Sequence record: PP129558
Source: Escherichia phage vB_EcoM_01
Strand: one strand, 5' to 3'
DNA: 64,000 bases
The translations under genes and the position numbers were made by a program. The notes beneath the pieces are model-generated. The model was not told the origin of the DNA and ran no database searches. It saw nothing but the letters and a program-made list of their open reading frames with translations. The number at the start of each line of letters is the position of its first letter. The stretch's first letter is position 1. This document shows, piece by piece, positions 8,052-34,886 of the stretch.

Positions 8052-9050
8052 TCACCATTTAGTATGATTTGTTAAAAGTTGACGATGTTGAATCCAGCCT
8101 TTGAAATTGCCAGACCAAAACTTACCATTACGATCTACATGGGTAATACCTGGTTCCCAAGAGTTAAAATCCCAAGGAGCATTGATAAACAAATCTTCAA
8201 AACAGTTCTCTCCATATTGTTCGCATGTTTCTTGCATTGGAGTCGCTTGATGTTCAAACGGAGAAGCATGAACCTTGCGCCCAGTCAGCAAACGACCATA
8301 GATATCTAAAGCTTTATCTTTAGTTGCATTTAAACGACGATAGCTAACCTGTGCACAACACGAAGCTGAAATAGCTTTGGCTTCTTCCAAAGTAAGCACA
8401 ACAACTTCTCCAGATTCATCTTGAACGTAGTATCCACCAAAAACAAAATGATCGTCACCTTCTGTGCCAATATTATCATAGAAATGGTCTACATAAGGTG
8501 TGTGCCATTGCCCTGGTTTCAGCACTTCTGGTGTAGATTCTTCATACTCTTTGTGCATCTCTTTAGCCAAAGCTTCGATAGTAGGATCGGCTTCTTTGTC
8601 ATCACGTAGCCACCAGAAATTTTCATATTCTGTTGCTGTCAGAACTGTTTTAATTCGTTGGAAAGGTTCCAGAAGACGGTTTGCAACTTGTTTGTGGTAC
8701 CCTGCCAAAGAGAATTCTTCTGCAAAACGTGCTGCACTAAGCGCGGCAAGATCCCACCACTCTTGAGCAGTATAACCTGCATCAATAAGAGCGTCATGAT
8801 CAACACCTTTATCCTGCATACCAGGTTGGTTAGCCCCAAAACGATAAGGACGAGCAGGTTGATTTCGCACCATTTCAATCAGTGTTTTAACAGGTATAGC
8901 ACGGCTAGAAGCAGCATTACGACTGAACAGGCGGTGAGTCATCAATTCTGAATGAATAATACGTGGATATTCTAGTTCAAAAGTTACAATCTCTTTTCCG
9001 TCTTCAGTGATGGAATGCGCAATAATACTAGCCGAAATCTGTTTTGTCAT
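8052..9050 (-). CDS. ThyX-like (flavin-dependent thymidylate synthase family) protein, divergent
   Basis: 332 aa; HRLFSRNAASSR resembles the ThyX RHRxxSxNxxSxR signature and HASPFEH resembles the ThyX HxSPFEH motif, but in non-canonical order and spacing, with a second weak HR motif (QHRQLLTNH) at the C-terminus. Confidence 0.45.
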   Translation of the reverse strand: MTKQISASIIAHSITEDGKEIVTFELEYPRIIHSELMTHRLFSRNAASSRAIPVKTLIEMVRNQPARPYRFGANQPGMQDKGVDHDALIDAGYTAQEWWDLAALSAARFAEEFSLAGYHKQVANRLLEPFQRIKTVLTATEYENFWWLRDDKEADPTIEALAKEMHKEYEESTPEVLKPGQWHTPYVDHFYDNIGTEGDDHFVFGGYYVQDESGEVVVLTLEEAKAISASCCAQVSYRRLNATKDKALDIYGRLLTGRKVHASPFEHQATPMQETCEQYGENCFEDLFINAPWDFNSWEPGITHVDRNGKFWSGNFKGWIQHRQLLTNHTKW

Positions 9051-24299: not shown

Positions 24300-24490
24300 G
24301 TGGTAACAGGGTCGTTGATTTTTGTTAAGAGGGGCTTGCACTGCGGTAGTGTTAGAGACTACTTCTTCAGAGGTTAGCTACCAAAGAGGAAAAGGAATAG
24401 TCTCGGCTCAAGAACTTTTACGCTGAAAGTTGGGCTTGGTCTTAGAGAATGTAGCGATTCTCTACAATCGTCAGCGTCTCTGTTACCACA
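24300..24490 (+). ncRNA. candidate structured RNA (~190 nt) closed by a 10-bp long-range stem
   Basis: GTGGTAACAG at 24300-24309 pairs with CTGTTACCAC at 24481-24490; internal hairpins such as TAGAGAAT/ATTCTCTA; no ORF or tRNA fold; sits between a promoter and the first tRNA. Confidence 0.3.
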
Positions 24491-24495
24491 TTTAT

Positions 24496-24570
24496 GGCCC
24501 TGTAGCTCAATGGGAGAGCTGTCGGCTCATAACCGATAGGTAGCTGGATCGAAACCAGCCAGGGCCACCA
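24496..24570 (+). tRNA. tRNA with CAT anticodon (Met or Ile2)
   Basis: Manual fold: acceptor GGCCCTG/CAGGGCC, D stem GCTC/GAGC, anticodon loop CTCATAA, T arm GCTGG-ATCGAAA-CCAGC, encoded CCA. Confidence 0.7.
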
Positions 24571-24572
24571 AC

Positions 24573-24647
24573 GTCTTTATGGTGTAATGGATAGCACAGG
24601 AGTCTTCTAAACTCTTAGTCAAGGTTCGATTCCTTGTAAAGACACCA
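24573..24647 (+). tRNA. tRNA-Arg (anticodon TCT)
   Basis: Acceptor GTCTTTA/TAAAGAC, anticodon loop CTTCTAA, T arm CAAGG-TTCGATT-CCTTG, encoded CCA. Confidence 0.75.
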
Positions 24648-24650
24648 GAA

Positions 24651-24831
24651 CATTTTAACATGAATTAGCTCAAGTGATTTGAACCCACTACTGATCATGG
24701 TGGCAGAGAATGAGGCAAGTATGTCAGACATTATAAACAAAGGCCACGGTTATATTAGAAGACATAAATGCTCGAAGAGCACCGTTCGTGGAGAGCGGGG
24801 GTTGGTGGAGTCACCATTCATGGTAAAATGT
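24651..24831 (+). ncRNA. candidate structured RNA (~180 nt) closed by a 17-bp long-range stem
   Basis: AACATTTTAACATGAAT (24651-24667) pairs with ATTCATGGTAAAATGTT (24815-24831) with one mismatch; between two tRNAs; the 63-aa ORF inside is probably not coding. Confidence 0.3.
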
Positions 24832-24843
24832 TTTAAAAAACTA

Positions 24844-24872
24844 TTGACAACTAACATTATTTTATGTTAGAT
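24844..24872 (+). promoter_or_regulatory. candidate promoter (TTGACA-N17-TTAGAT) ahead of tRNA-Ser
   Basis: Consensus -35 hexamer; the tRNA 5-prime end at 24882 is at a plausible distance from the -10. Confidence 0.4.
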
Positions 24873-24881
24873 TATAAGTAT

Positions 24882-24972
24882 GGAAGGGCAAATCGACGTG
24901 GCGACGAAAACGGTCTTGAAAACCGCCGAGCTTGAAAGAGCCTTGGGAGTTCGACTCTCCCTCCTTCCGCCA
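24882..24972 (+). tRNA. tRNA-Ser (anticodon TGA), type II
   Basis: Acceptor GGAAGGG/TCCTTCC, anticodon loop CTTGAAA, long variable arm, T arm GGGAG-TTCGACT-CTCCC, encoded CCA. Confidence 0.65.
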
Positions 24973-24977
24973 GATTA

Positions 24978-25063
24978 GGTAGATTGGTGAAATGGTAGCC
25001 ACGACAGTTTGCTAAACTGTAGTCGGAAACGGCGTGTAGGTTCGAGTCCTACATCTACCGCCA
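24978..25063 (+). tRNA. tRNA-Ser (anticodon GCT), type II
   Basis: Acceptor GGTAGAT/ATCTACC, anticodon stem ACAGT/ACTGT with loop TTGCTAA, long variable arm, T arm GTAGG-TTCGAGT-CCTAC, CCA. Confidence 0.65.
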
Positions 25064-25193
25064 AGTTCTTTTTAATGTAGCTTACTTTAGCAGAGTAAAT
25101 CTTCGGCAAGTGGCGGTAACCACTTTACCGATACCTCATAGTTAGTGGTGAGAACACTGGCTATTTTAAAAAGAATTTAAATATTAGTATTTA

Positions 25194-25281
25194 GGTGAGT
25201 TAATTCCGTAGGGGTAGCGGGGCAGACTGTAAATCTGTTATCATTGCGATTCGGGTGGTTCGACTCCATCACTCACCACCA
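25194..25281 (+). tRNA. tRNA-Tyr (anticodon GTA), type II
   Basis: Acceptor GGTGAGT/ACTCACC, anticodon loop CTGTAAA, long variable arm, T loop TTCGACT, CCA. Confidence 0.6.
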
Positions 25282-25287
25282 AATTAA

Positions 25288-25373
25288 GATGAGTTGGCTG
25301 AATGGTTTAAGCGGCGGACTGTTAATCCGTGTTCGAAAGAACAATATAGGTTCGAATCCTATACTCATCGCCA
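25288..25373 (+). tRNA. atypical type II tRNA whose anticodon loop parses as GTT
   Basis: Perfect acceptor GATGAGT/ACTCATC, T arm ATAGG-TTCGAAT-CCTAT, CCA; best anticodon arm GCGGA-CTGTTAA-TCCGT gives GTT, yet there is a 15-nt variable arm with its own GTTC-GAAA-GAAC hairpin. Confidence 0.4.
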
Positions 25374-25380
25374 GAATTAT

Positions 25381-25457
25381 GGACTTGTAGAGTTAAGGTA
25401 AACCCCCAGTCGCCAATAGGCTTCTGGAATTGCAGGTATCGAATCCTGCCGAGTCCC
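25381..25457 (+). ncRNA. tRNA-like element with aberrant anticodon arm (possible tRNA pseudogene)
   Basis: Acceptor GGACTTG/CGAGTCC and T arm GCAGG...CCTGC (8-nt loop) are present, but the anticodon region forms a bulged hairpin with an AATA tetraloop; no CCA. Confidence 0.3.
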
Positions 25458-25463
25458 AGCATT

Positions 25464-25538
25464 GCTCCTATAGTATAATGGCTATTACAACGGTTTTGTA
25501 ATCCGTGGATCTCTGTTCGATTCAGTGTGGGAGCACCA
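25464..25538 (+). tRNA. tRNA-Thr (anticodon TGT)
   Basis: Acceptor GCTCCTA/TGGGAGC, anticodon loop TTTGTAA, T loop TTCGATT, CCA. Confidence 0.6.
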
Positions 25539-25811
25539 ACACAACATTAAGAGCACTGTGATTGATCGTCGTATCCTGTGCACAAGGTCTGCTCGAAAGA
25601 CAGTGTTCTTAGTATTGTGTTGATCACAAAAAGAGTCACCCGAAACTTGACCGGAGTAGGGTTGGATGGGGCAAAATGAGAAGCGGCTCTCCCATCGACA
25701 GCAACGAAGAATAATATTTGACTTTGGTTTTGTATTATTTTAAGTTAGCTTACCGAACGTAGGGCTAGTCACCCAACGGGATACTCGTCACTGTCCCAAT
25801 CAATAAAAGTC

Positions 25812-25841
25812 TTGACAACAAATAGTAAAATGTAGTATAGT
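25812..25841 (+). promoter_or_regulatory. sigma70-like promoter (TTGACA-N18-TATAGT) ahead of tRNA-Gly
   Basis: Consensus -35 and near-consensus -10; the tRNA 5-prime end is 12 nt downstream. Confidence 0.55.
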
Positions 25842-25852
25842 AAATATATAGG

Positions 25853-25926
25853 GCGTTCTTGGTGTAGCGGTAGCATTCCGTCCTTCCAAGTCGGCGGCAC
25901 GAGTTCGATCCTCGTAGAACGCTCCA
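25853..25926 (+). tRNA. tRNA-Gly (anticodon TCC)
   Basis: Acceptor GCGTTCT/AGAACGC, anticodon loop CTTCCAA, T arm ACGAG-TTCGATC-CTCGT, CCA. Confidence 0.6.
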
Positions 25927-26024
25927 AATTATTTAATAAAGGGTTGCCAGAAAACTTTCTCTTTTACTCATGGTTTTCTCCTTCTCTCACACTTCTTCTG
26001 GTTGCCCTTCATTAAATGATTTAT

Positions 26025-26100
26025 TGGTTTGTAGTGTAGTCCGGTAGCACACGACACTTTGACTGTCGTAGGTTTGGTTCAAATCCAGACAGACCAGCCA
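26025..26100 (+). tRNA. tRNA-Gln (anticodon TTG)
   Basis: Acceptor TGGTTTG/CAGACCA, anticodon stem CGACA/TGTCG with loop CTTTGAC, T loop TTCAAAT, CCA. Confidence 0.7.
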
Positions 26101-26270
26101 TATAACGGAATTTAGCTCAGTTTGGTAGAGCGTACGCTTTGGGAGCGTAGGGTCGCAGGTTCGAATCCTGCAATNCNGACAGACCAGCCATATAACGGAA
26201 TTTAGCTCAGTTTGGTAGAGCGTACGCTTTGGGAGCGTAGGGTCGCAGGTTCGAATCCTGCAATTCCGAC
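26091..26270. repeat. 90-bp tandem duplication with ambiguous bases at the junction (26175, 26177), duplicating tRNA-Pro
   Basis: 26091-26180 equals 26181-26270 apart from ncn; copy 1 of tRNA-Pro (26106-26180) is 3-prime degraded by the ambiguous bases; probably a consensus artefact. Confidence 0.7.
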
Positions 26271-26272
26271 CA
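26196..26272 (+). tRNA. tRNA-Pro (anticodon TGG)
   Basis: Acceptor CGGAATT/AATTCCG, anticodon stem TACGC/GCGTA with loop TTTGGGA, T arm GCAGG-TTCGAAT-CCTGC, CCA. Confidence 0.7.
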
Positions 26273-26278
26273 ATTAAA

Positions 26279-26352
26279 TGTTTCGTAGTTCAATGGTAGA
26301 ACCCACGACTGATAATCGTGAGACACAAGTTCGATTCTTGTCGAAACAACCA
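26279..26352 (+). tRNA. tRNA-Ile (anticodon GAT)
   Basis: Acceptor TGTTTCG/CGAAACA, anticodon stem CACGA/TCGTG with loop CTGATAA, T arm ACAAG-TTCGATT-CTTGT, CCA. Confidence 0.75.
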
Positions 26353-26354
26353 GT

Positions 26355-26424
26355 TTCCCGTTAGACTTACAGGATAAGAGATCCACAATTTATTGTGACG
26401 CTGGTTCGAATCCAGCACGGGATA
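26355..26424 (+). ncRNA. tRNA-like element with tetraloop in place of an anticodon loop
   Basis: Perfect T arm GCTGG-TTCGAAT-CCAGC and a 6/7 acceptor pairing, but the central arm is CACAA-TTTA-TTGTG (4-nt loop); CC without A at the 3-prime end. Confidence 0.3.
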
Positions 26425-26430
26425 CCTAAT

Positions 26431-26509
26431 AGCGGGATAGAGGAGTCTGGTCGTCCTCGCCAGTTTCATATGCTGGAGATCATTGGTTCAAATCCAATTC
26501 CCGCCTCCA
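26431..26509 (+). tRNA. second tRNA with CAT anticodon (Met or Ile2); A1-C72 mismatch
   Basis: Acceptor AGCGGGA/TCCCGCC (position 1-72 unpaired), D stem GAGG/CCTC, anticodon stem CCAGT/GCTGG with loop TTCATAT, T arm ATTGG-TTCAAAT-CCAAT, CCA; lacks the three G-C pairs of an initiator anticodon stem. Confidence 0.6.
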
Positions 26510-26624
26510 AATATCGCTTGCCAGCGGTATCTTTGAAGACCTTGCCTGGTTCCTTCTAAGATGGAGGGGTGCGACTCCTTAACGCACAATTATAATAAAT
26601 CATTTCAAATTAACAGTATTTATT

Positions 26625-26648
26625 AGCCTCCTTATTGGAGGCTTTTTG
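26625..26648 (+). terminator. intrinsic terminator ending the tRNA transcription unit
   Basis: AGCCTCC-TTATT-GGAGGCT hairpin followed by TTTTT. Confidence 0.65.
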
Positions 26649-26666
26649 CTATCTATTGAATAAAAC

Positions 26667-26695
26667 TTGACTTATTATTTTTTATATGTTAAGAT
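26667..26695 (+). promoter_or_regulatory. candidate promoter (TTGACT-N17-TAAGAT)
   Basis: Near-consensus -35; TAAGAT -10-like element; about 20 nt upstream of the 26717 start. Confidence 0.4.
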
Positions 26696-26716
26696 AAAGT
26701 TTAGGAGGATTTTATT

Positions 26717-33863: not shown

Positions 33864-33884
33864 TTTTAATAGGAGATTAATATA

Positions 33885-34886
33885 ATGCCAGCAGTAATTT
33901 TAGATCAGGTTGTAGATTTCAGCCCTATGATCGAACTTCAGGATTCCCCTGATACACTGATTGCCAGCCTGAATCTGTTCAGTGTTGACTATCATTCAAC
34001 TACCGCTATTGAAATCGGTAAAGAAAAAGCTGAAGATGCTCTGATCTCCGCTCGTGAGCGTGGTGGTGAGCGTAACTTCCTGACCATGAAAAATCCAGAA
34101 CTGAAAGCGTTCCGCATTCCGTTCTTCCCTCTGGATAAAAACATCAAAGCTCAAGATATTCAATCTTTCCGTAGCTTTGCAATGGCAGGAATCAATGACT
34201 CTCTGCGCACAGACGCTGAAGTTGTTAACCGCTATATGTCCCAGATTCTGCGTGACGTAGCAAAAACCAAAGAGAAAATCTTTGCAGAAGCAGTTATGGG
34301 TCGTGCCTATAACGGCGTAGGTGGTGCAGCTAACTCTGCATACAACTGGTATACCGAATGGGGTGCTACCCAGAAATCTGTTGCTGTAGACTTTGCTTCT
34401 ACCACTGTTTCTCCAGCAGCCACTATCGAACAAGAAGCTCGTGCTTACATCATCGATACTAAACAAGATGGCTCTACCGCTACCCGTATCGTAGCTCTGT
34501 GTTCTCGTGAGTTTTTCGCATCTCTGGTTAACTCTCCATTTGTTCGCCAGGCATATCAGTATTTCCAGGGAACTCCTAACCTTCTGCGTGACCGCCTTAG
34601 CGGTAACATGGATGTTCAGGTGTTCGAATGGAACGGTGTAACTTACATTGAAGATATCCACGGTAACATCCCTGCTGGTGAAGCATATGTTCTGCCTATG
34701 GGTATCGAAGGTATGTTCCAGGCGCACTACGCTCCTGCGGATACCCCAGAACTGGCTAACACCCAGGCTCGTGAACTGTATACCTTCATGATCAGCCAGC
34801 ACCGCACTATTCAGCTTCAGTCTGAATTCTCGCTGCTCGCAGTTAACACCCGTCCAGAACTGGTAGTTAAACTGACTACGGCTTAA
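33885..34886 (+). CDS. major capsid protein (lambda gpE-like)
   Basis: 333 aa; C-terminal NTQARELYTF resembles lambda gpE GNTQARGLRTY as recalled; length matches; strong host-like codon bias; terminator follows. Confidence 0.75.
   Translation: MPAVILDQVVDFSPMIELQDSPDTLIASLNLFSVDYHSTTAIEIGKEKAEDALISARERGGERNFLTMKNPELKAFRIPFFPLDKNIKAQDIQSFRSFAMAGINDSLRTDAEVVNRYMSQILRDVAKTKEKIFAEAVMGRAYNGVGGAANSAYNWYTEWGATQKSVAVDFASTTVSPAATIEQEARAYIIDTKQDGSTATRIVALCSREFFASLVNSPFVRQAYQYFQGTPNLLRDRLSGNMDVQVFEWNGVTYIEDIHGNIPAGEAYVLPMGIEGMFQAHYAPADTPELANTQARELYTFMISQHRTIQLQSEFSLLAVNTRPELVVKLTTA

Follow-up and report, generated by a model that had tools for sequence, protein, structure and literature searches.

Long variable arms are, according to textbooks, restricted to Leu, Ser, bacterial Tyr, and Sec tRNAs, and phage tRNAs are increasingly seen as counters to tRNA-cutting defenses such as PARIS, retron-Eco7, P2-OLD, and PrrC. 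Phage tRNA variants that escape PARIS AriB (T5 tRNA-Lys, tRNA-Thr, and tRNA-Asn; PMC12409363) or P2-OLD (tRNA-Thr; PMC12445682) carry changed bases in the anticodon stem-loop, and allo-tRNAs are natural long-arm tRNAs with non-Ser anticodons (Mukai et al. 2017, PMC5389517). Phage tRNA clusters also hold small RNAs that are not tRNAs: T4 species 1 and 2 (rnaC and rnaD, of 139 and 119 nt), the first ending in a tRNA-like T arm, and, in the T5 record AY543070, RNA1 and RNA2, listed as “tRNA-like stable RNA with unknown functions,” together with the 73-nt “rna3: RNA3, putative tRNA-like RNA” at 33877-33949, directly after tRNA-Asn. Here we compare with these systems a 64,000-nt stretch of Escherichia phage vB_EcoM_01 (sequence record PP129558; henceforth the window), in which the distal part of a polycistronic tRNA operon holds four odd genes that are three different things: a tRNA-Asn(GUU) with an extra variable arm, two anticodon-less tRNA-derived RNAs, E1 and E2, and an initiator-type tRNA(CAU). 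The phage is, by its sequence, a Phapecoctavirus-type (Stephanstirmvirinae, phAPEC8-like) E. coli myovirus, with bases 24400-26700 matching Phapecoctavirus AV126 at 98.9% identity and many other relatives at 97-98%. The genes are already in databases, labeled tRNA-Asn, RNA3, and tRNA-Met, and long-arm genes are present in hundreds of phage genomes. We hold the identities and the conservation of the four genes with high confidence; the overall explanation that we favor, with some reserve, is that they comprise a working Asn tRNA of phage design, two tRNA-derived RNAs, and a phage initiator.

A preliminary description of this DNA had read 25288-25373 as a tRNA with a GUU anticodon and a 15-nt variable arm. 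Both the anticodon and the extra arm are borne out: ARAGORN calls an 86-nt tRNA with the anticodon GTT, the Rfam tRNA model gives 62.1 bits and places a 12-nt insertion in the variable region, and the minimum free energy (MFE) fold is a cloverleaf with an additional hairpin, GUUC-GAAA-GAAC, at 25331-25342. The length holds for the variable region as a whole, the arm proper (hereafter the mini-arm) being a 12-nt hairpin followed by 3 unpaired nt. A class I tRNA has a variable loop of 4-5 nt; the 15-nt region with its 4-bp hairpin amounts to a 12-column insertion relative to E. coli tRNA-Asn, from which the alignment sets the mini-arm apart cleanly. The preliminary description had allowed that automated folding might still return a conventional class I structure, a reservation that falls away because none of ARAGORN, Infernal, and MFE folding yields one. 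With the canonical E. coli tRNA-Asn (asnT/U/V/W) the window copy shares GUU, G73, the 7/5 architecture of acceptor and T arms, and the whole anticodon arm, an 18-nt stretch (GGCGGACUGUUAAUCCGU) that is identical in phage and host, the host sequence having been verified in 5,425 genomes; its 7-nt anticodon loop, CUGUUAA, contains U33 and G34 U35 U36 (ARAGORN and Infernal alignment). It differs in the 12-nt hairpin, in having G1-C72 and A2-U71 rather than U1-A72 and C2-G71, and in its D arm. With class II tRNAs (Leu, Ser, bacterial Tyr, and Sec) it has a base-paired variable arm in common, with tRNA-Ser also G73, and its 3-bp D stem with G13.A22 is a further likeness to class II tRNAs and allo-tRNAs. 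Unlike these, it has the anticodon and the anticodon arm of tRNA-Asn, its variable arm is shorter (2-5 bp across the phage genes), its acceptor/T split is the standard 7/5 and not 8/4 or 9/3, and the acceptor pairs of tRNA-Ser are not conserved.

The design is widespread among phages. Relatives of the window phage annotate the counterpart gene as tRNA-Asn; in Justusliebigvirus alia its arm, GAAC-GAAA-GUUC, is the mirror image of the window arm, and in the T5-like phage SHSML-45 and the T4-like Serratia phage CHI14 both arms read GUC-GAAA-GAC. A scan of IMG/VR with a loose pattern (which is biased, and most of whose raw matches arise by chance) followed by ARAGORN brought the set to at least 29 unique long-arm tRNA-Asn genes from Stephanstirmvirinae, T5-like and T4-like phages, and diverse IMG/VR contigs, whose acceptor and D arms are unrelated; T5-like records with such a gene number at least 247. 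Across relatives the arm starts 0-2 nt past the anticodon stem, has a stem of 2-5 bp (7 bp in one), and is followed by 3-4 unpaired nt. Hairpins of at least 3 bp form in 18 of the 26 unique variable regions listed, against 9.5 +/- 2.3 in shuffles; they comprise 14 different stems, with compensatory variants that include GAAC/GUUC, GUC/GAC, GUCA/UGAC, and GGA/UCC, and are closed by GAAA loops in 12 cases and by GGAA, GUAA, or UUCG in others. In a sample of viral tRNA-Asn genes drawn irrespective of arm length, 9 of 105 (~9%) have the long arm. The biased pattern itself, applied alike to viral and bacterial sequences, found about 25 real long-arm tRNA-Asn genes among 120 viral matches listed and 1 among 120 bacterial-genome matches listed, the sole bacterial example among them residing in the tRNA array of a metagenome-assembled genome (L254); no near match to the window tRNA-Asn plus E1 exists in 5,426 complete E. 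coli genomes. By this comparison, the long-arm tRNA-Asn is a conserved, phage-specific design and not an accident.

In E. coli, asparagine identity is set by the anticodon and G73, and serine identity by the variable arm and G73, helped by conserved G1-C72 and G2-C71 and independently of the anticodon; C2-G71 is an anti-determinant for seryl-tRNA synthetase (SerRS) (PMC9976931). Were SerRS to read the arm together with G73, the GUU tRNA would be a serine acceptor, or a dual Asn/Ser acceptor, and Ser would be placed at Asn codons as deliberate or tolerated mistranslation. The anticodon independence of serine identity itself weighs on this side and against asparagine, as does the phage's own tRNA-Ser(GCU), which has a 4-bp arm with a GAAA loop, the same 15-nt size, and similar D and T arms; the T5-like and T4-like long-arm copies, moreover, have G1-C72 and G2-C71. 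A paired arm with G73 is indeed present in the window tRNA, the arm being at the short end in size (4 bp, GAAA, and 3 nt), and arms of 2-5 bp followed by unpaired nucleotides are all that the relatives offer. The anticodon, in turn, is GUU and not a serine anticodon (NGA or GCU), and G1-C72 is present but is followed by A2-U71 in place of the G2-C71 of tRNA-Ser. Among the 29 unique long-arm genes listed, 19 begin the acceptor with U1-A72, as E. coli tRNA-Asn does, and 12 have C2-G71, unlike bacterial tRNA-Ser, and G73 is found in all 29 (after register correction), so that the full identity set of asparaginyl-tRNA synthetase (AsnRS) is conserved along with the host-identical anticodon arm. ARAGORN finds no second tRNA-Asn in the window phage; the GUU tRNA is its only one, and replacement of Asn by Ser across the proteome would be costly. 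The identity-altered tRNA entertained in the preliminary description is thus unlikely, and we regard serine or dual charging as improbable, its more radical variant, in which the arm recruits SerRS and Asn codons are partly read as Ser, retaining a slim chance. Because GUU and G73 are combined with the anticodon arm of the host, and the acceptor pairs of tRNA-Ser fail to be conserved, 25288-25373 is instead probably a genuine Asn tRNA, charged with Asn: host AsnRS would recognize it via GUU and G73, and it would decode AAC and AAU.

What the arm contributes to such a tRNA is a separate question, on which the genomic record bears in several ways. At one and the same locus, T5-like phages carry either of two tRNA-Asn alleles, one of type I and one with the long arm (the latter at 1479-1561 in locus L004 of SHSML-45). 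The allele of T5 itself, 78 nt long and of type I, has an altered anticodon stem (L297, 8948-9025), and its 5′ end is overlapped by T5.069 (8453-8971), an open reading frame (ORF) with a T5orf172/MUG113 nuclease-type domain (Pfam, 5.8e-16); this overlap suggests that alleles at the T5-like locus are replaced by a mobile endonuclease gene. Mini-arms, defined as a short stem with a GNRA or UUCG loop, also occur on other type I phage tRNAs: on 4 of 59 Thr(UGU), on 13 of 52 Ile(UAU), and on one or two each of Cys, His, Gly, Trp, Pro, Phe, and Glu tRNAs, with none on Lys, Asp, Ala, or Val tRNAs in the same census of viral loci. The arm could be a neutral palindromic insertion in a permissive variable loop, its fold kept by purifying selection without any function. 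The low frequency at which mini-arms are scattered over many isoacceptors, the generic hyper-stable tetraloops (GNRA and UUCG) in place of one specific sequence, and the swapping of alleles at the T5-like locus are what such an insertion would lead one to expect. It would leave unexplained why the arm is kept across three phage families and the T5-like records counted above, although deletion is easy, why it is enriched in viral over bacterial pattern matches, and why it consistently goes with a host-like anticodon stem while type I alleles have altered stems. We consider neutrality possible, with clearly less than an even chance.

Our best guess at a role for the arm involves defense nucleases. 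Among the targets of the PARIS nuclease AriB, host tRNA-Asn(GUU) ranks as a secondary one; the enzyme cuts it within the 3′ strand of the anticodon stem, at 40|41, and makes further contact with the D loop (PMC12409363). Host tRNA-Asn is a P2-OLD substrate as well (PMC12445682). The insertion point of the mini-arm lies 3 nt from the AriB cut site. Like the known escape tRNAs, the window tRNA-Asn is an array-borne phage copy of a nuclease-targeted host tRNA; unlike them, it keeps the host stem-loop exactly and adds an arm, its escape being putative. The same division runs through the tRNA-Asn alleles, those of type I in T5 and T2 having changed anticodon stems and the long-arm alleles keeping the host stem. 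We posit that the hairpin would be a very short, hyper-stable steric appendage on a normal tRNA-Asn body, tolerated by the ribosome, EF-Tu, and the synthetase, as class II arms are, while altering the view of the hinge and anticodon-stem region for other tRNA-binding proteins, among which defense nucleases such as PARIS AriB are candidates. Since hyper-stable tetraloops of any kind are preferred, the pattern suggests that compact bulk rather than sequence matters. That the arm is a steric shield against tRNA-cutting defense nucleases is nonetheless a tentative idea, about which we are more doubtful than convinced, and several points weigh against it. Covariation shows that the hairpin must stay folded, not that it is advantageous. 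A specific link between mini-arms and AriB targets did not hold, because mini-arms are on many isoacceptors, Ile(UAU), Trp, and Cys included, and never on Lys, the main AriB target. Nor do the T5 experiments lend support to the long-arm tRNA: the T5 tRNA-Asn that helps against PARIS is the type I allele. PARIS-sensitive Bas34 (SelmaRatti) was likewise discarded as a natural test of shielding, its tRNA-Asn being a chimera whose acceptor strands are unable to pair. In that gene (L298, 401-483) the 5′ part is of the long-arm kind and is joined to a 3′ end of foreign origin, a possible reason for the dependence of Bas34 on T5 tRNA-Asn supplied in trans for escape from PARIS (PMC12409363).

E1 and E2 share a fold: the acceptor stem has 6-7 bp, the T arm has 5 bp, and a hairpin with a tetraloop lies at the center. 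They had been described preliminarily as elements with acceptor and T arms and a tetraloop hairpin in place of the anticodon arm, and folding of 25381-25457 and 26355-26424 agrees; neither has an anticodon loop, and the one amendment is that both retain a degenerate D arm. ARAGORN calls neither, and E1 has no Rfam match even at E<=10. The fold of E1 is more stable than that of shuffled sequences (z = -3.2). E1 starts 7 nt past the CCA of tRNA-Asn, a layout repeated in alia, SHSML-45, and T5. Regardless of which Asn allele a phage carries, an E1-type element immediately follows tRNA-Asn on its 3′ side in Phapecoctavirus, Justusliebigvirus, and T5-like phages; beyond these groups, ~400 loci searched with a descriptor and with nhmmer yielded none. 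When 15 distinct sequences were aligned on three defined helices, 93.7% of cells were paired, against 30-42% in slid controls, both sides had changed in 11 of 17 pairs, and the observed covariation score was reached by 0 of 500 shuffles. The loops behave in the opposite manner: neither the core GUAGAGUUAAG(G)UAAACC nor the 8-nt T loop YAUCGAAU varies, and the 32 invariant columns of the alignment include GUAGAGUUAA..AAACC and AUCRAAY. A residual D arm is visible in the core as U13-A22, G12-C23, and an A11.C24 mismatch. With T5 RNA3, E1 has in common the position 3′ of tRNA-Asn, the core, the 8-nt T loop, and the three-helix layout; all helices differ in sequence, and position 1-72 is paired in window E1 (G1-C72) but is U1.U72 in RNA3, T5-type copies ending in A73-CCA. 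On these shared features, E1 is a homolog of T5 RNA3.

E2 belongs to a second family, separate from that of E1. Its fold (26355-26424) has z = -2.5 relative to shuffles, and the Rfam tRNA model reaches 24.3 bits, below the gathering threshold of 29, with the acceptor and T arms alone aligned. E2 has homologs in Phapecoctavirus, in contig L056, and in the Vequintavirinae phage W70, where the element immediately follows tRNA-Tyr; the same descriptor and nhmmer searches of ~400 loci found none elsewhere, and no T5 counterpart was detected. In an alignment of six sequences, 96% of cells are paired and 6 pairs have changed in compensation. The conserved UUACAGGAUAAG is a D-loop sequence that is also found in the normal tRNA beside the L056 homolog, which argues that E2 is tRNA-derived. 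The L056 member has a 7-nt loop on its central hairpin, is called tRNA-Val(AAC) by ARAGORN, and ends in A73-CCA; the coliphage hairpins have loops of 4-5 nt, which cannot serve as anticodon loops, and the window copy ends in ACCU.

Other affiliations of E1 and E2 were rejected. Rfam gives no support for tmRNA-like or Y-RNA-like (YrlA) domains, and homology to T4 rnaC/rnaD or to T5 RNA1, RNA2, RNAI, RNAIII, or RNAIV does not go beyond T-arm words; with E1 and E2 profiles, nhmmer matches only 26 nt of the T arm of T4 rnaC/rnaD (E=0.008). The T4 RNAs, small non-tRNA products of a phage tRNA cluster, are like E1 and E2 in setting but are longer. The preliminary description had proposed comparison with homologous arrays, and had considered that the odd genes might be pseudogenes. 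The comparison finds E1 and E2 conserved, in hundreds of genomes, and the pseudogene option does not survive it, since E1, E2, and the extra arm are kept across distant phage groups with compensatory base changes. That E1 and E2 are decaying, functionless tRNA pseudogenes would fit the silence of ARAGORN, the absence of any Rfam placement above threshold, their degenerate D stems, and the L056 homolog of E2, which is still tRNA-like; it does not fit compensatory changes in all three helices, invariant loops, or their presence in three or four phage groups, and we judge it very improbable.

Decoys or processing signals, the remaining options of the preliminary description, are live readings. 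We propose that E1 and E2 lost the anticodon loop and kept the acceptor stem, the T arm, and a D-loop-like core, and that, lying as they do 2-7 nt from flanking tRNAs, they would be released by RNase P and 3′ trimming as tRNA-shaped, non-decoding RNAs of ~70-77 nt. They would then occupy a factor that recognizes the acceptor, T arm, or elbow of tRNA or, alternatively, would organize precursor processing. Action as a mimic or decoy is a proposal to which we give a fair hearing but somewhat less than an even chance. Three points weigh against our overall reading of E1 and E2: the RNase P step is deduced only from the shape of the RNAs, T5 RNA3 is itself “putative” in its annotation, and window E1 lacks an encoded CCA. 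If, on the other hand, E1 and E2 are processing punctuation, their shape would direct RNase P and 3′ trimming of the neighbors (Asn and Thr for E1; Ile and the initiator for E2), and the released RNAs would be functionless. Their embedding at 2-7 nt in one transcription unit, their retention of the parts that RNase P recognizes (acceptor, T arm, elbow-forming loops, and a partly encoded CCA), and the constant location of E1 next to tRNA-Asn speak for punctuation. Extra punctuation nevertheless seems needless in the window, because the flanking tRNAs are RNase P substrates themselves; T5 RNA3 is followed by an ORF and not by a tRNA; and the invariance of 17-19 nt in the D-like region and of the unusual 8-nt T loop, while the helices have all changed across clades, suggests a more specific interaction. 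Punctuation, too, is therefore a minority possibility in our view.

A bolder synthesis would join armored tRNAs and tRNA dummies into one phage counter-defense kit, with the GNRA-capped mini-arm as a modular steric shield and E1 and E2 as non-decodable decoys for acceptor- or elbow-binding factors. A nuclease-targeted phage tRNA (Asn here; Thr, Ile, and others elsewhere) would keep the host anticodon arm and its compatibility with synthetase and decoding, and, so shielded, would escape Toprim or anticodon-stem nucleases. We consider this kit speculative and rather unlikely. Full-text literature searches turned up no account of extra-arm phage tRNA-Asn or, more broadly, of phage tRNAs with mini-arms, and none that assigns RNA3 a function; the word “variable” is absent from the AriB paper that treats T5 tRNA-Asn (PMC12409363). 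A conserved, covarying arm on tRNA-Asn, and apparently on other phage isoacceptors, breaks the textbook class rule, and it poses for synthetase biology the question of how AsnRS, a class IIb enzyme, accommodates a variable arm. If the shield were true, an arm on a host-identical tRNA would be an escape route different from changes to the anticodon stem-loop. E1 and E2, for their part, carry the half-century-old puzzle of the T4 and T5 “stable RNAs of unknown function” to other phage families, with unchanging loops, covarying helices, and a fixed place beside tRNA-Asn as a comparative handle on it. Should the arm be neutral and the mimics mere processing spacers, what is left would be a useful annotation note and not new biology.

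The fourth odd gene, 26431-26509, had attracted notice as a CAU tRNA with A1 opposite C72. The mismatch is real (ARAGORN and folding) but is no anomaly, being a hallmark of bacterial and phage initiator tRNAs. Position 1-72 is always mismatched in the family: A.C in the window, C.C in alia, U.U in T5, and U.C in CHI14, all four CAU tRNAs having G2-C3-G4-G5-G6 and U73 in common; the T5 member is annotated “initiator tRNA fMet,” and some relatives annotate tRNA-fMet. The formylation determinants of E. coli tRNA-fMet are G2-C71, C3-G70, and A11:U24, and the window tRNA, by sequence and fold, has all of them. It therefore shares with bacterial tRNA-fMet and the T5 initiator CAU, the lack of a Watson-Crick 1-72 pair, and these three pairs. 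It differs from the bacterial initiator in having A1.C72 rather than C1.A72, U73 rather than A73, a 5-bp D stem, and one G-C pair in the anticodon stem in place of three consecutive ones (CCAGU/GCUGG, with A29-U41, G30-C40, and U31.G39); the annotated T5 initiator is likewise without the three G-C pairs. On this family comparison, 26431-26509 is a phage initiator tRNA, an ordinary part of the finding. The first CAU tRNA of the array, 24496-24570, is annotated tRNA-Met; its acceptor, D, and T arms resemble those of the lysidine-dependent E. coli tRNA-Ile2. If 24496-24570 is Ile2, the phage may encode Ile2 and the initiator and no elongator Met.

Table 1. Coordinates of the features in the tRNA array of the window, and viral loci with mini-arms on other tRNAs
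Feature	Position	Strand	Characteristics	Basis
tRNA-Asn(GUU)	25288..25373	+	encoded CCA, G73, host-identical anticodon arm, extra variable arm	ARAGORN, Rfam, MFE fold, host alignment
Mini-arm of tRNA-Asn	25331..25342	+	GUUC/GAAC 4-bp stem, GAAA tetraloop, then 3 unpaired nt	fold; compensatory variants in relatives
E1, anticodon-less tRNA-like RNA	25381..25457	+	T5 rna3 homolog	fold, T5 annotation, covariation
E1, acceptor	25381-25387 with 25451-25457	+		
E1, D-loop-like core	25388-25404	+		
E1, central hairpin	25406-25427	+		
E1, T arm	25432-25449	+	8-nt loop	
E2, anticodon-less tRNA-derived RNA	26355..26427	+	U1.U72 mismatch; tail ACCU	fold, sub-threshold Rfam tRNA match, homologs in W70 and L056
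E2, D-loop-like core	26362-26380	+		
E2, hairpin	26384-26397	+	CACAA-UUUA-UUGUG	
E2, T arm	26400-26416	+		
Initiator-type tRNA(CAU)	26431..26509	+	A1.C72, G2-C3-G4-G5-G6, A11:U24, U73, CCA	ARAGORN, Rfam, fold, family comparison
Promoter-like site	24844..24873	+	TTGACA-18-TAGATT with TG; upstream of Ser-Ser-Tyr-Asn-E1-Thr block	10/12 consensus matches, consensus match only
Promoter-like site	25812..25841	+	TTGACA-18-TATAGT; upstream of Gly-Gln-Pro-Ile-E2-tRNA(CAU) block	11/12 consensus matches, consensus match only
Terminator-like hairpin and T run	26625..26643	+	end of array	
Viral loci with mini-arms, Thr-UGU	L008, L140, L317, L339			
Viral loci with mini-arms, Ile-UAU	L303, L310, L319, L359, L379, L391			
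Further viral loci with mini-arms on other type I tRNAs	L070, L104, L120, L320, L391, and others			

The array occupies the plus strand from 24496 to 26509 and contains 11 tRNAs by ARAGORN, to which the Rfam tRNA model adds Tyr(GUA) at 25194-25278. Its longest ORF does not exceed 63 codons, and the odd genes sit 2-7 nt from neighboring tRNAs; because of this spacing, the lack of a long ORF, and the promoter-like sites and terminator-like hairpin listed in Table 1, the array looks like two polycistronic tRNA transcripts in which the odd genes are embedded. The stretch 24882-24971 is probably a tRNA-Ser(UGA) whose D arm (CAAAUCGACGUGGCGACGAAAA) is aberrant; it is missed by ARAGORN and the Rfam tRNA model and found by the tRNA-Sec model only, at a sub-threshold 37 bits; its odd D arm is common to the tRNA-Ser(GGA) genes of T5-like phages. 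The tRNA-Tyr(GUA), taken as 25194-25281, has no ARAGORN call and only 39 bits in Rfam, and is labeled “tRNA-Pseudo-GTA” in MT496970. The long spacers 25064-25193, 25539-25640, and 25927-26024 contain no credible ORF and form extended helices (such as a ~20-bp stem at 25539-25620), and may be stable RNAs like T5 RNAI, RNAIII, and RNAIV. A 90-bp tandem duplication at 26081-26260 produces a second tRNA-Pro(UGG); N bases stand at its junction (26175 and 26177), the whole window has 3,538 N, and relatives have a single copy of this stretch, so that the duplication is most likely an assembly artifact. The segment 25185-25545 is 100% identical to MG065650.1, named “Campylobacter phage B15,” and several further “Campylobacter phage” records match; the Campylobacter host label of this and similar records looks doubtful. 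Finally, tRNA-like genes without annotation are found at 1357-1434 in L003 (alia), 7564-7642 in L102, 1625-1712 in L138, 12887-12961 in L391, and 133-207 in L398. These have no D arm, a normal anticodon loop (UCU in alia), and then an extra segment with GUAACUGG, and may be another class of non-canonical phage tRNAs.

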